Part shown: piece by piece, positions 8,819-17,410 of the stretch
Position numbering within the stretch: position 1 is the first letter of the stretch
Layout of the letters: every line of letters begins with the position of its first letter
DNA from: a bacterium
GTDB taxonomy: Bacteria > UBA8248
Direction of reading: 5' to 3'
DNA: 64,000 nucleotides
Assembly: GCA_965213625.1 (NCBI GenBank)
Contig: CBDBZU010000004.1
Location: 2,624,001 to 2,688,000, forward strand
The notes under the pieces: generated by a model
Told to the model about the DNA's origin: nothing
What the model saw: only the letters and a program-made list of their open reading frames with translations
Database searches by the model: none
Program-made: the position numbers and the translations under genes

Positions 8819-10540
8819 TTAGCGTAGCGACAAGCCGGTCCGGCGCGGCATTTTGCGAAGTCGCTCGTAGCGCGCCACCCTCGGTTGGTCGAGCAGGGGT
8901 TTGGGTTCGTTCTCGATGCTTTGCTGGTGGACGTCGTCGGCGAAACCTTCCATGCCGACTCTGGGCAGCGCCTTGCCGATGAAGCGTTCGATATTCTTGA
9001 CTGGCGTGATTTCGCCGGGCGACATGAGCGTCATGGCGTAGCCGATGCGGCCGGCGCGGGCCGTTCTGCCGGCGCGGTGGACGTAGTCTTCAGGGTATTC
9101 GGGCACGTCGTAATTGATGACGTGAGAGATGCCCGTCACGTCGATGCCGCGCGAAACGATGTCCGTCGCCACGAGTATGCGGTGCTGACCCTGGCGAAAG
9201 CCCGCCAGCGCGCGCTCCCGTTGGCGTTGGCTTCTGTCGGAATGAATCTTGGCGACGGAAATTTTCTCGTTTTCCAGGAAATTGCAGAGCACATCGGCCC
9301 CGGCTTTGGTTCTCGTGAAGATGAGGACGCTGGTGGGGTTGTATTTGTCGATGATGCCCAGCACGCCGCGCGGCTTGTTCGCCATGCTGATAGGGTAGAC
9401 GCCGTGGTGGATGCCCTCCGCCGGCGTCGAGGGCGGAGAGATGTTGATTTGCACCGGGTCGCTCACCGCGCGATTCGCCAGATCCTGAATTTTTGCGGGC
9501 ATGGTGGCGGAGAAAAGCATGGTCTGCCTCTTTTTGGGCAGGCGTTTGAGGATTTCGGTGATCTCCTCGGCGAAGCCCATGTCCAGCATGCGGTCGGCCT
9601 CGTCGATGATGAGTATTTCCAGTTTCTTGAAATGTACGGATTTTCGTTTCAAATGGTCGAGCAGCCTGCCGGGCGTGGCGACGACGATGTCCACGTTCTC
9701 ATGAAAAGCCTGGAACTGAGGCTCGTAATCCACCCCGCCGTAGATGACCGCGCATGAGGTTTCGACGTGTTTTCCCAGACGGTGGAATTGTTCCGACACC
9801 TGGATTGCCAGTTCCCGCGTGGGCGTCAGCACGAGGCACCTCGTGCCCGAGCCGCCTTGTAGGCGTTCGAGCGTCGGGAGGGCGAAAGAAGCGGTTTTGC
9901 CTGTGCCCGTCTGGGCGCAGCCGATGATGTCCCGGCCCTCACGTGCGACGGGAATCGCATCCCGCTGGATGGGCGTGGGGGCGTCGAACCCGAGGCCGTG
10001 AATCCCGCGGAGCAACTCAGGCCCGAAGCCGAGTTCCCGGAAGCCCTCGGGCGCGTCTGCTACGTCGAAATCGTCCACGCCGAATTCGGCAGGGTCTTTT
10101 TTGTAGGTGATGCCGTTATAAGAGGGATTCGCCGCTTTCTGGGATTTTTGCGGTGCGGCCTGTGCTCCCGCCACCGCGGGTTTCTTCTTGCGGCGCCTTC
10201 TTGTCCTTTTGTTTTTGGATGGTTTGTCGTCGTTTTCCAGATTTTTCGATTCTATGGTTGCTGCGTTTTGCTTATGCAATGTTTCTCCATTATTTTGTTT
10301 TTTCCGGGGGCGACTGCGCCGGCGGCGTTTGTTCCCGGGGTTCGTCCCGTTCGAGTCGGTTTTTCCCTGCGGAGATTCGACATCGGCAGGTTTCGAGGCG
10401 GAAGAGGCTTTGTTCCGTTCGGCATGGTCAGTGGAAGGCGCGGAATTGGATTCCAGGACCTTGGCGGAAGGTAGGCTCTCGGGGGTTTGTTCTTTGCTTT
10501 TGGAGCGAATGATGTTCGCTAAATGTTTGATAATTCTCAC
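8819..10540 (-). CDS. DEAD-box RNA helicase with long basic N-terminal extension
   Basis: Q-motif PTPIQ, AQTGTGKT, PTRELA, TPGRL, DEAD, SAT, HRAGRTAR. Exact start uncertain. Confidence 0.93.
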   Translation of the reverse strand: MRIIKHLANIIRSKSKEQTPESLPSAKVLESNSAPSTDHAERNKASSASKPADVESPQGKTDSNGTNPGNKRRRRSRPRKKQNNGETLHKQNAATIESKNLENDDKPSKNKRTRRRRKKKPAVAGAQAAPQKSQKAANPSYNGITYKKDPAEFGVDDFDVADAPEGFRELGFGPELLRGIHGLGFDAPTPIQRDAIPVAREGRDIIGCAQTGTGKTASFALPTLERLQGGSGTRCLVLTPTRELAIQVSEQFHRLGKHVETSCAVIYGGVDYEPQFQAFHENVDIVVATPGRLLDHLKRKSVHFKKLEILIIDEADRMLDMGFAEEITEILKRLPKKRQTMLFSATMPAKIQDLANRAVSDPVQINISPPSTPAEGIHHGVYPISMANKPRGVLGIIDKYNPTSVLIFTRTKAGADVLCNFLENEKISVAKIHSDRSQRQRERALAGFRQGQHRILVATDIVSRGIDVTGISHVINYDVPEYPEDYVHRAGRTARAGRIGYAMTLMSPGEITPVKNIERFIGKALPRVGMEGFADDVHQQSIENEPKPLLDQPRVARYERLRKMPRRTGLSLR

Positions 10541-12226: not shown

Positions 12227-12919
12227 CTAGATCGCTGTGCTCGCGCGAGCGGTGAAGATGGTTTGCTCCATTTTTGGCATTCCCTCGAATGCGGGGTCTT
12301 CGTTCACCATCCGGGCCAGATATTCATCCACGTACTCGGCGTTCGACCAGGTGCATTTGTAGGCCACTTTCCCGTCCTTGCCGACGAGCCAGATGGTGTT
12401 CGGCAGGTCTCCGAGCATGGCGTGCACCTTCTGGTCCATCTCGTCGACGAGGATGTTAGTTTCCATTTTTTTGATATCGGCCAGCTCTTGCGCGTAGCTC
12501 CGCTTGTGCTCGTAGGATTCATGGTTTCTGATCTCGGGGAACCCGCGCTCGCCTGCGTGAGGTTCCCTCACATAGAGATTGAAGACGACCACGTCGCGGT
12601 CCGCGTATTTCTCTTGCAACTCTTCATAAAACGGCACCTGCCGCCTGTATGGCGGTCACGTGATGGCGCCTGTGGTCATCACCACGTATTTCTTCCCCAG
12701 ATAATCCGCCATGCGGTGGCTGTTTCCGTGAATGTCCTTGAGTTCGAAATCGGGGAAGGGGCTGCCGGGAGGAAGGACGTTGGGAAATTTCTCATAAAAA
12801 CTCTTGACTCGTTTGCTCGTGACGAGTTTGATGGTCTTCAACAGGTTCAGATACTGCCAGGACCAAAAACCCGCCAGCGGTCCCCAGGGTTTCGGGACGG
12901 AATCGTTAGCCGGTCTCAT
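12227..12919 (-). CDS. Iodothyronine-deiodinase-like thioredoxin-fold selenoprotein (Sec at TGA 12656-12658, residue 88 of 230)
   Basis: ORFs 12656..13048 and 12227..12637 are in frame and join as GAIT-UGA-PPYRRQ, compared with deiodinase GSxTUPPF. Also YVREPH and PN...GKVAY. SD GAGGAG before ATG 12919. SECIS directly downstream. Confidence 0.88.
12625..12651 (-). promoter_or_regulatory. Bacterial SECIS element
   Basis: CAUA-C-AGGCGGC-[AGGU]-GCCGUUU-UAUG; the loop starts after 16 nt downstream of the UGA and contains the same GCAGGU as the E. coli fdhF SECIS. Confidence 0.75.
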
Positions 12920-13116
12920 AGAATGAAACTCCTCTGCGATATACGTTTGTTTGTATGATGGCGTATGCCCAGTCCCTTTGTTTACCCAATCGCAGAGTGA
13001 AACACAACCGCCCGAACGTGGGAGCGAAAGACGGTCCTTGAAAGGCAAATTTTGTGAATTTTTTTCACTTTTTATTTCAAGTTTTAATATTGTTTATCTA
13101 AAGTAGATTGTAGAAA

Positions 13117-13932
13117 TTAAAAATCGAACGACAGCTGCGGCTCTTTCTCTCCCGAAACGACTTTTTGGGGATTTTTCGGAGACGTGCTCACTCCTCCGCG
13201 CGCGCGTGGTGGTTTTTTCCGGGGTTTCGCTGCGCTTGGTTCACCTGGTGGCGCCGGAAAGAGGGGTTGCGTTACATCCTGTGGGGACAACCTGGATTTT
13301 CTCGCTTCGGGCCGAACATCCTCCGGGCTCGCCTCATTTGGCTGTTGCCGATCTTGACTTTTGTTTCTCCCACGGGCGTTTGCGGCCTCCGCCTCGAGAG
13401 CCGCCGTCAGGTCTCTGGGCCGCTCCCAGGGGGCATCTTGCGAGGATGCCCGCTCCCCGCCCTTCATGCGCATGAGCTTGGTTTTGAGGTCCTCGATGCG
13501 CGCGTAAAAGCCGGGGCTGTGGGGTGTGGAGGGAATTCGGAGAAATTTTCTGTCGATGTGGTGCATGAGTTCGTGGATGAGGGTATCCAGAAACGTCTTG
13601 CCAGCGACGACCTGCTTGCGAATGGACGTCAGGTTGGCGATTTCGATCAACGCGCTGTCGCAATGGTAGACGCCGTACAGCTTGTAGGCGAGTTTTCCGC
13701 CATGCAGCTTGTGGGGTTGCCGCTTTTCGAACACGCGCAGGCGCGCACGGGGAATCTTGAGGCTGCGGCAAATGTTGTCGAGAAGCTTCTGGCCCAGCGC
13801 TTCGCGCTCGTCCGCGCTCGTGGAAACGATGAGTTTTCCGGTGAGTTCGCGCTCCTGCGCAGCGGGTCGGTATTCCAGTGCCGGGAGTTTGTTGGAGCGC
13901 ATGAAATCCGGTGTATCGCGGCGCCTGCCCAT
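13117..13932 (-). CDS. SprT/Wss1-like zinc metallopeptidase with disordered tail ending QLSFDF
   Basis: TLIHELMHH (13561-13575) and downstream PHSPGF third-His motif; Pro/Lys/Arg-rich tail. Confidence 0.7.
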   Translation of the reverse strand: MGRRRDTPDFMRSNKLPALEYRPAAQERELTGKLIVSTSADEREALGQKLLDNICRSLKIPRARLRVFEKRQPHKLHGGKLAYKLYGVYHCDSALIEIANLTSIRKQVVAGKTFLDTLIHELMHHIDRKFLRIPSTPHSPGFYARIEDLKTKLMRMKGGERASSQDAPWERPRDLTAALEAEAANARGRNKSQDRQQPNEASPEDVRPEARKSRLSPQDVTQPLFPAPPGEPSAAKPRKKPPRARGGVSTSPKNPQKVVSGEKEPQLSFDF

Positions 13933-15914: not shown

Positions 15915-16057
15915 GGGACTTCTCCGTGTTGATTTGGTGAATGCGCTCGTTGCGTGTCCTTTGCGCCGAAAGTAGCGAGGCCGGGCCTTCAAGTCAACGA
16001 TGCGGAGGCATCCATCTCTTTTGCACGCATTCGACAAGCCGCCCCGCCCGTGTTTTC

Positions 16058-16086
16058 TTGACAGGTCAATGCGCGGGTGCTAGCGT
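16058..16086 (+). promoter_or_regulatory. Sigma70-like promoter for the M24-family gene
   Basis: TTGACA-17 bp-TAGCGT with TG upstream of the -10 box. Confidence 0.45.
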
Positions 16087-16171
16087 CGCCGCGAATTTCA
16101 TATTCAGAACAATCGTTTGCAGACTCGATATTTTCAGACCGAAATCTTTGTTTTGCGAGGAGGAAGATGCA

Positions 16172-17410
16172 ATGACGGACTACCCCACGTGGGCGCGCGG
16201 CTCGATGATGGTCGACTGGGAGCACCGCATCGATATGGACCGCATGCGCAGAGAGCGCGTCGAGAAAACCCAGGCGGCGATGAAGGAACAGGGCATCGAC
16301 GCCCTCATCCTCTGGAAGGACGAGAACGTGCGCTACCTGACCAGCGCGCGCGTCATCATGATTCAGTACCGCTCCTCCACCACCTACGGCGTTCTGCTCA
16401 GGCAGGAGGGCAATCCGACGCTACTGGCCTCAAGCGGCGAGGCGCACCGCATCGAGGAGTGCATGCCCTGGATAGACGATTACGTGCCCATCGGCATCCT
16501 GGAGGAGCCGGGTCTCGTGGAGCACACGGTGGGCACCGACATCAAGACGCGATTCGATGACTGGGGGGTTTCGAACGGAACCATCGGGCTGGATGGGCAC
16601 ACCTTCACCCAGCGGGCGATGATCGATAAATATTTCCCCGAAGCCACTTTCGTGGACGGCGAGCAGTTCATGTACATGAGCCGGGTACAGAAGACGACGG
16701 ATGAGATCGCATGCCTCCATCAGGCGTGCGCCATCGCCGACGCCGTGACCATCACGGCGCTCAACCACGCCGAGCCCGGCGTTCGCGAGTTCGACGTGGC
16801 GGCCGAGGCCATGAAGACGCTTTTCACCCACGGCGGGGAATTCGGGCATCTGGCATCTCCATTTGTCGCCTCGGGCGAGCACATGGCGCCGCCGACGCGT
16901 TTTCCTACCGATAAAATCATCAGGAACGCCGACATCGTCTTCATCGACATCGGCGCCTGCTGGAACGGCTATTTCGGGGACTGCGGGCGCGCGAAGGTGG
17001 CCGGCGGCCCGCCCCATCCAATGCAGCAAAAGGTGTATACGACCGTCTACAAGGCGCTCAAGGCGGGAATCGCCAAGATGCGTCCCGGCTACACGAACGA
17101 CGATTCGGCGGCGGAGTTCCTGGAAGTGGCGCGCTCCGCGGGTCTCGAGGAAAACTTCATCAAGCTATTCATCGGGCACGGCTGCGGCATATCGCCCAAC
17201 GAGCCGCCCTACGTGGGCGAGGTGATGCCCGGGGCCGAGAGCGTGGATTTCGTGCCGGGGATGACGTTCGCCATCGAGCCGCTCATCTTCGTGCCGGGAA
17301 TTCCGGGCGGGGCCGGCGTGCGCATCGAGGACCATATTCTCATCACCGAGGACGAACCCGTCTACATGACGCGCGCTCCATATTGTGAGGAGTTGATCAT
17401 TCAGGATTAA
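16172..17410 (+). CDS. M24 (Xaa-Pro peptidase/creatinase fold) hydrolase
   Basis: Metal ligands in FIDIG...YFGD, GHGCG, AIEP and RIED; SD GAGGAGG. Confidence 0.88.
   Translation: MTDYPTWARGSMMVDWEHRIDMDRMRRERVEKTQAAMKEQGIDALILWKDENVRYLTSARVIMIQYRSSTTYGVLLRQEGNPTLLASSGEAHRIEECMPWIDDYVPIGILEEPGLVEHTVGTDIKTRFDDWGVSNGTIGLDGHTFTQRAMIDKYFPEATFVDGEQFMYMSRVQKTTDEIACLHQACAIADAVTITALNHAEPGVREFDVAAEAMKTLFTHGGEFGHLASPFVASGEHMAPPTRFPTDKIIRNADIVFIDIGACWNGYFGDCGRAKVAGGPPHPMQQKVYTTVYKALKAGIAKMRPGYTNDDSAAEFLEVARSAGLEENFIKLFIGHGCGISPNEPPYVGEVMPGAESVDFVPGMTFAIEPLIFVPGIPGGAGVRIEDHILITEDEPVYMTRAPYCEELIIQD

Follow-up and report, generated by a model that had tools for sequence, protein, structure and literature searches.

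A gene on the reverse strand of the window analyzed here (a stretch of 64,000 nucleotides of contig CBDBZU010000004.1) encodes a predicted small zinc metalloprotease that ends in QLSFDF, a peptide resembling those by which bacterial proteins bind the sliding clamp DnaN. We propose that the product is a clamp-tethered protease of the Wss1/SprT type that acts on DNA-bound proteins, most probably DNA-protein crosslinks, an explanation that, taken as a whole, we hold at about an even chance. The 271-residue open reading frame (ORF) begins with ATG, a start supported by the conservation of the N-terminal sequence MGRRRDTPDF among homologues. HELMH occupies residues 120-124, PHSPGF residues 137-142 and QLSFDF residues 266-271, the TAA stop codon (13117-13119) following directly. 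The isoelectric point (pI) is 10.08 for the whole protein and 10.13 for residues 1-158. Both the basic HExxH domain and the extreme C-terminal QLSFDF announced by the first-pass annotation, a reading of the letters and the ORF list only, were thus found in place. The gene is single-copy: searched with a profile, the genome of the organism gave one match.

The active site appears intact, because H120, E121, H124 and D127 are invariant in an alignment of 150 sequences, and H138, G141 and F142 are conserved at 90% or more. H138, which lies distal to HExxH, is likely the third zinc ligand. With a 150-row alignment, AlphaFold2 placed residues 11-150 at a predicted local distance difference test score (pLDDT) above 96, and the domain-only model reached a pLDDT of 96 and a predicted template modelling score of 0.90: the domain of 155 residues is confidently folded. 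Sequence or structure prediction in this way establishes both the putative protease fold and its intact active site. Residues 1-60, with their basic conserved start, have a pI of 9.5 and are also found in short relatives.

Relatives of this protein are numerous: an exhaustive phmmer search retrieved 463 representative clusters at E 1e-3 or better. When the family profile was compared to the PDB, the only match below E 0.001 was Wss1 from S. pombe (5jig_A, E 5.8e-4), the entry of its E203Q mutant scoring 0.061; a single-sequence search of the PDB gave no match. Foldseek searches of the PDB placed Wss1 in all top five places, with the full-length and the domain-only model alike (probabilities of 0.97-1.00 in one search and 0.84-0.99 in the other, template modelling scores by target of 0.53-0.58). 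The best match among viral models was an SprT-like protein (E 8e-4, probability 1.00), and the closest ESM Atlas clusters are automatically named SprT-like (score 0.96). For the window protein, NCBIfam, PHROGs and PADLOC yielded zero matches, the SprT-like family PF10263 gave none at E up to 10 in Pfam, and no further Pfam domain was found besides a sub-threshold match to WLM. Relatives score 12-19 bits on PF10263, for a cut-off of 25.6, and no protein of the organism's genome passes that cut-off, hence there is no canonical SprT in it. Basicity is shared across the family: the pI, 10.1 for the domain of the window protein, has a family median of 9.7 and exceeds 9 in 91% of 133 domains. No fused longer form (476-2000 residues) was present among 1104 candidates, which is weak evidence. 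We conclude that the domain belongs to the Wss1/SprT superfamily as a minimal zincin and forms a family of its own, with an extra N-terminal three-helix region.

Wss1 is thus the nearest solved fold. Like this WLM protease of fungi and plants, the window protein has a compact minimal zincin of about 120-150 residues. It differs from Wss1 by the additional N-terminal three-helix region, by a score under the WLM gathering cut-off, and by its third zinc ligand (H138), which appears to be distal instead of lying close after HExxH. Wss1 is targeted via SUMO and Cdc48, whereas the predicted targeting of the window protein is through the sliding clamp. Phage and bacterial SprT-like proteins, E. coli SprT included, are also prokaryotic minimal zincins of the same superfamily; to our knowledge their functions are largely unknown, and no clamp motif in them was described in the literature searched.

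Lower among the Foldseek matches we found IrrE/PprI and PrpR-type COG2856 domains, and IrrE-like phage proteins came up in the viral search. Proteases of the IrrE type are small HExxH enzymes of DNA-damage responses, a role that would fit an ImmA/IrrE-like regulatory protease cleaving a DNA-bound repressor upon a damage or replication signal, with the clamp motif coupling it to replication status. We regard this as quite improbable: Foldseek probabilities for COG2856-type domains were 0.13-0.57 (0.13-0.23 for IrrE/PprI), against 0.84-1.00 for Wss1, no helix-turn-helix repressor gene adjoins the protease gene, be it in the window or at related loci, and Pfam returned no match to Peptidase_M78/IrrE at E up to 10.

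The region beyond the domain was analyzed on close relatives. A word-indexed search retrieved 66 metagenome relatives from Nitrospinota/Tectomicrobia, and after removal of 8 fragments from P0001-P0068, 60 full-length orthologue rows were kept. In the window protein the tail is 116 residues long, with ten-residue block means of pLDDT of about 38-60 over residues 191-271. This agrees with the low-complexity tail of about 110 residues noted in the first-pass annotation, except that the tail is not featureless: a helix is predicted at residues 175-195 (pLDDT 83-87), and a conserved island at residues 169-180 leads into it. The island pattern, W-x2-3-P-x-x-L-x-x-A, is present in 59/60 rows of the long clade, which makes it as conserved as the clamp motif, and W169, P172, L175 and A178 are invariant in the tail alignment (A2). 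Residues 169-180 have no known counterpart, and further binding partners of the tail may be suspected for the island W169-E180. Further along the tail, R-x-x-R-[WL] occurs in 40 of the 60 rows and is followed by LF 3-16 residues downstream in 14 of them; this element, at residues 211-226, could be a weak second clamp-type motif or another linear motif.

It is at the very end of the tail that conservation rises again. In the core, a fraction of 0.85 of the rows share the commonest residue; this fraction falls to 0.48-0.50 in the linker (residues 182-262) and returns to 0.80 over residues 265-271. A clamp-type motif is found in the last 30 residues of 57 of the 60 orthologues, as QLx[LF]x[LF] or QLx[LF]F in 54 and with QM in 3. 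The rows devoid of it are P0036, P0059 and P0065; in the last of these the motif may lie just outside the frame, as judged from its last 30 residues, which open with the post-motif sequence AFGEE. Among 30 Nitrospinota/Tectomicrobia loci from species genomes, 27 have the terminal motif; as for the others, L002 has QLSFDY at its end, a truncation leaves L013 with 168 residues and L031 runs off its contig. Such endings are beyond what chance would give and are rare in the organism's own genome, where the two QL forms of the motif just named are present in the last 12 residues of 7 out of 11,635 ORFs of at least 100 residues, and of 2 out of 4,711 ORFs of at least 200 residues. Two expectations of the first-pass annotation are therefore borne out by these data, namely that the termini are conserved while the linker diverges, and that a protease domain, a disordered tail and a terminal clamp-type motif form one architecture.

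How well does the peptide fit known clamp ligands? A 2024 review (PMC11139829) gives the consensus of natural clamp motifs as Q-phi-x-[L/M]-[F/L] and, one residue longer, Q-phi-x-[L/M]-x-[F/L], the tightest binders being QLxLF and QLxLxF. It notes that these motifs are flanked by acidic residues or sit at a free C-terminus, and it names the pocket residues of the E. coli clamp. Another source gives the motif as QL(D/S)LF (PMC6511837). The variants found in relatives, QLTLDF, QLALAF, QLELGF, QLELPF, QLSLF and QLLLF, match this consensus. As to its setting, QLSFDF corresponds to what is expected of a ligand, being a flexible extreme C-terminus (pLDDT below 60) preceded by EKEP and containing D270. 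In this respect the window protein is like Pol II, Pol III alpha, Pol IV, Pol V, Hda, MutL and MutS, for which the review describes a flexible or terminal Q-L-x-L-(x)-F/L peptide with acidic flanks that occupies DnaN subsites I and II; unlike the window protein, none of the ligands discussed there is a protease. Two Y-family polymerases of the same organism bear clamp-type motifs, QPLLF and QLELPL.

We modelled the complex between DnaN of the same genome (C4:897352-898509; 61-row alignment A3) and tail residues 232-271 (alignment A2). The interface score ipSAE was 0.77, 0.77 and 0.76 in three runs, compared to 0.00 for the best of three controls; among solved complexes 58 of 80 attain that mark, among mismatched pairs 2 of 110. 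Contacts agreed between runs at 88% or more, and the peptide was predicted to lie in the canonical pocket; such a model had been proposed as a check in the first-pass annotation. Tail residues 263-271 are predicted to contact DnaN residues 173, 175-176, 178, 263-265, 267-268, 298 and 300, as well as 339, 363, 365 and 381-384, among which are the invariant T-D-G-H-R-L and M-P-M-R stretches of the DnaN alignment. We infer that these residues correspond to subsites I and II of E. coli (PMC11139829), a mapping made by pattern and not by alignment with the E. coli clamp. As a prediction, the complex indicates that the peptide is clamp-motif-like, which is short of showing binding. Taking sequence conservation and model together, we consider clamp binding by the QLSFDF tail to be well supported in silico.

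The recurrence of the motif was then quantified at the scale of the family, using 149 representatives at 50% identity or less. Two of them lack HExxH, 105 end within 25 residues past the domain and 42 are tailed. The strict motif (QLx[LF]x[LF] or QLx[LF]F) was found in the last 20 residues of 13 of the tailed representatives, whereas 2000 trials with shuffled tails averaged 0.03 and never gave more than 1. These motif-bearing proteins fall into at least three separate clades. On a tree of 137 protease domains, built without the tails (a quick method with midpoint root, supported by the Shimodaira-Hasegawa-like approximate likelihood-ratio test only), the motif undergoes 5 changes, at least 3 of which are forced by well-supported branches, as against a mean of 15.4 when labels are shuffled. 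Since the tails of the motif clades differ wholly in length and composition, the motif must have been repeatedly gained or selectively kept. Most of the distant relatives, from the candidate phyla radiation (CPR) and anammox bacteria, are bare domains of 150 residues, so that the clamp tether is best seen as a recurrent clade-level addition rather than a family-wide trait. Apart from these, a tailed clade without clamp motif (P0101, P0150, P0173, P0174, P0175, P0184) shares another C-terminal element, W-V...G...Y/W-R-I-D-W or I-N-W-P-E-T, which may be an alternative targeting module.

A protease domain joined to a sliding clamp by a disordered tail is reminiscent of eukaryotic SPRTN, the analogy drawn in the first-pass annotation. 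The active site of SPRTN combines HExxH with a distal histidine in an H-x-x-G-F-type motif, and the window protein has the same combination. In SPRTN (Spartan/DVC1), the crosslink protease of metazoans, the protease domain is joined to a long disordered tail in which short linear motifs are found, a PCNA-interacting protein (PIP) box among them (PMC7782752); similarly, the window protein associates a small HExxH zincin, a long disordered tail and a sliding-clamp motif, a clamp-binding motif (CBM) replacing here, by analogy, the PIP box. As the clamp is the bacterial DnaN and the motif a CBM, not a PIP box, the tether would be convergent with that of SPRTN, not inherited. Moreover, SPRTN has features that the window protein lacks: a zinc-binding or basic DNA-binding subdomain behind the protease domain, where the window protein has a tail predicted to be disordered except for the helix at 175-195, and modules that bind ubiquitin or p97. 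Another eukaryotic protease, FAM111A, is recruited to PCNA through a PIP box. Its fold is that of a trypsin-like serine protease, unlike that of the window protein. FAM111A acts at forks, and the hypothesis is that it helps replication past DNA-protein obstacles there (PMC9798293).

The mechanism we propose is as follows. In the Nitrospinota/Tectomicrobia lineage, a small basic zinc metalloprotease of the Wss1/SprT type with a flexible tail of about 116 residues would insert its QLSFDF end into DnaN, in the hydrophobic pocket where domains II and III meet. Because this pocket serves polymerases and repair factors, the protease would be concentrated at clamps on DNA, i.e. at forks, gaps and repair patches. 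The long linker would allow the basic protease domain to sweep nearby DNA and to cut blocking or stuck proteins. Its substrates would most probably be DNA-protein crosslinks, the peptide remnant being then bypassed or excised. We infer the DNA-associated substrates and the part in crosslink repair from the analogy with the SPRTN-PCNA pair and from the basicity found across the family.

The same tether might also serve another purpose. The protease could be bound to the clamp and act on non-covalent clients of the clamp or the replisome, or on the clamp itself (stalled translesion polymerases, leftover clamps, transposases), as a form of traffic control. All the evidence for clamp binding applies equally to such a role, with a tether of some 100 residues the active site can still reach the occupant of the second pocket of the DnaN dimer, and the two Y-family polymerases with clamp motifs would be candidate clients. 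In addition, according to a preprint (bioRxiv 10.1101/317677), bacterial Lon is proposed to clear DNA-bound proteins under genotoxic stress, including non-covalently bound ones; unlike the window protein, Lon is an AAA+ serine protease of unrelated fold, which binds DNA directly and has no clamp tether. We find this role rather unlikely. The tail-less majority of the family cannot act in this manner, which implies that something other than the clamp defined the ancestral substrate; Wss1, the closest relative in structure, is a crosslink protease that depends on DNA; and the gene context points to no specific substrate.

Several observations weigh against a clamp-tethered crosslink protease. 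Concerning the fold, the best Pfam match of the window protein is WLM (PF08325), with an E-value of 0.073 and 13.6 bits for a cut-off of 26, a cut-off that its relatives do not pass either (22 bits at most). No Foldseek match in the PDB reaches E 0.001, the E-values for Wss1 ranging from 6e-3 to 1e-1, and human SPRTN (6mdx_A) is a poor structural match, at rank 11 with a probability of 0.28; the likeness to SPRTN put forward in the first-pass annotation holds for the architecture, and the fold matches Wss1/WLM better than SPRTN. Concerning the motif, QLSFDF, which otherwise fits, has F at position 4, where the published consensus has L or M. In the complex model the partner pLDDT is 45-47, and the score may be owed to a likeness with the many solved clamp-peptide structures. 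At the scale of the family, the strict motif is absent from 29 of the 42 tailed representatives (two of them, with QPMLPF and QTLLPF, being near-misses), and proteins are tail-less in 105 of 149 representatives and at 50 of 50 loci of Planctomycetota (anammox included), Patescibacteria and metagenome-assembled genomes titled uncultured Gammaproteobacteria. As most members are tail-less and most tailed ones lack the strict motif, the core function of the family does not depend on the clamp. Homologues that end after the domain, which the first-pass annotation would have counted against its proposal, thus do exist among distant relatives but not among orthologues.

The distribution of the gene bears on the proposal in both directions. 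In its favour, the gene is single-copy and the phylum keeps it in 37 of 51 genomes (21 of the 29 high-quality ones, and 21 of 22 in the genus). Against it, the gene is missing from 14 of the 51, including all 4 genomes of a small-genome genus. It is truncated in L013 and split in two in G025. Being absent from 14 genomes and broken in a few, the gene is dispensable. One in-frame stop each was also counted in G021, G024 and G030, and in G030 another match, to the tail only, lies at a distance of about 2 kb; truncated or stop-bearing copies are probably occasional decay or assembly errors. Finally, no DNA-repair gene lies near the protease gene in the window or in the Nitrospinota/Tectomicrobia loci, and at the loci of short forms the commonest neighbour family is present in only 11 of 50. 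With no repair gene nearby and such varied neighbours for the short forms, we drew no functional inference from gene context.

Some of these observations would be expected if the resemblance were misleading, that is, if the peptide served another partner, acted as a degron or did nothing, or if the domain were no protease of DNA-bound proteins. Some WLM-like bacterial proteins are reportedly small-molecule or nucleotide hydrolases. Family membership is under all curated thresholds, the gene context is metabolic, clamp motifs are short and degenerate (PMC6511837) and F at position 4 is non-canonical. The ...LPF endings of some clades also resemble the tip of SSB; mimicry of that tip was set aside, as the Q-L-x-L spacing is intact. 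Against a misleading resemblance, the succession Q-L-x-hydrophobic-x-hydrophobic is strictly kept on diverging tails in at least three clades, where shuffling gave an expectation of 0.03, the model docks the peptide in the canonical pocket with controls at 0.00, and the catalytic residues are invariant. We judge it improbable.

Coordinates of the protease gene, of its parts and of the genes mentioned in the text (window positions, except for the two polymerases, which are given by locus)
Feature	Coordinates	Strand	Description	Basis
Whole protease gene	13117..13932	-	271 residues plus TAA stop	ORF list and sequence
N-terminal helical region	13753..13932	-	residues 1-60; helices 8-14, 25-36, 40-57	AlphaFold2 and alignments
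Zincin core	13468..13752	-	residues 61-155; five-stranded sheet, active-site helix 111-129, helix 140-154	
HELMH	13561..13575	-	residues 120-124; two predicted zinc-binding histidines and catalytic glutamate	
HSPGF	13507..13521	-	residues 138-142	alignments
C-terminal tail	13120..13467	-	residues 156-271; mostly predicted disordered, proline-rich, basic	
Conserved tail island	13393..13428	-	residues 169-180; W-x2-3-P-x-x-L-x-x-A	
Mid-tail element	13255..13302	-	residues 211-226; RKSRL...QPLFP	
QLSFDF	13120..13137	-	residues 266-271; extreme C-terminus, acidic flank EKEP, free carboxylate	
M24 peptidase	15941-17410	+	divergent from the protease gene	
DEAD-box helicase	8819-10540	-	same strand as the protease gene	
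DinB-like Y-family polymerase	L085:781-2091	-	QPLLF about 35 residues before the end	
Second Y-family polymerase	L086:1363-2706	+	QLELPL	

Near the protease gene lie genes for a GFO/IDH/MocA oxidoreductase, a probable thioredoxin-fold selenoprotein, a DinB_2 protein, an enoyl-CoA hydratase, a luciferase-like monooxygenase, a DEAD-box helicase and an M24 peptidase. Across Nitrospinota/Tectomicrobia (L002-L030), and down to about 50% identity between proteases, the protease gene keeps its place between those for the M24 peptidase and the helicase. In L026, L027 and L029 the helicase is directly downstream and starts 160-200 bp past the protease gene, and in the clade of the window three genes are inserted between the two. 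At the loci of Patescibacteria-type short forms (L039-L081), the neighbours often look, by eye, like housekeeping translation genes, such as those for ribosomal protein L20, IF3, SmpB and tRNA synthetases.

Two further observations concern the DNA immediately downstream of the protease gene. The spacer at 13049-13116 reads as markedly A+T-rich, against a G+C-rich genome. Beyond it, two ORFs (12227-13048, reverse strand) are one frame split by a single TGA (12656-12658), which, read as selenocysteine, gives a product of 273 residues with GAIT-U-PPY. This read-through product matches the AhpC-TSA (4e-12) and iodothyronine-deiodinase (1e-10) models across the TGA position, the genome contains a tRNA-SeC (C4:1431748-1431843), and the product is probably a thioredoxin-fold selenoprotein.

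Wss1 and SPRTN are dedicated crosslink proteases, central to genome stability in eukaryotes, and the repair of DNA-protein crosslinks in bacteria is ascribed to nucleases, recombination and general proteases. The first-pass annotation knew of no established bacterial example of such an architecture, and we found none either: no bacterial Wss1/SprT-type or crosslink protease is linked to the sliding clamp in the literature searched, subscription-only papers and supplements aside. The main text of the 2024 clamp review (PMC11139829) uses neither word, protease or peptidase (0 occurrences). A 2025 paper (PMC13424408) states that no endogenous crosslink protease is reported for E. coli, and in a mycobacteriophage paper SprT-like proteins and DnaN are both named, in unrelated passages.

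These results define a widespread and uncharacterised protease family, represented by the 463 clusters retrieved at E 1e-3 or better. It is conceivable, at somewhat less than an even chance, that this WLM/SprT-like family of about 150 residues is the dedicated crosslink protease that bacteria seemed to be missing, and that clamp tethers arose in it at least three times, in convergence with the PIP boxes of SPRTN and FAM111A. If this were true, replisome-coupled crosslink proteolysis would be a solution that evolved again and again in different domains of life, and the tail-less proteins of Patescibacteria and anammox bacteria would be the minimal form of a crosslink protease. A bacterial Wss1-like protease with a conserved and recurrently acquired clamp peptide would also add a new class to the clients of the clamp, and with this protein of 271 residues the question of replisome-coupled proteolysis in bacteria would become directly testable.

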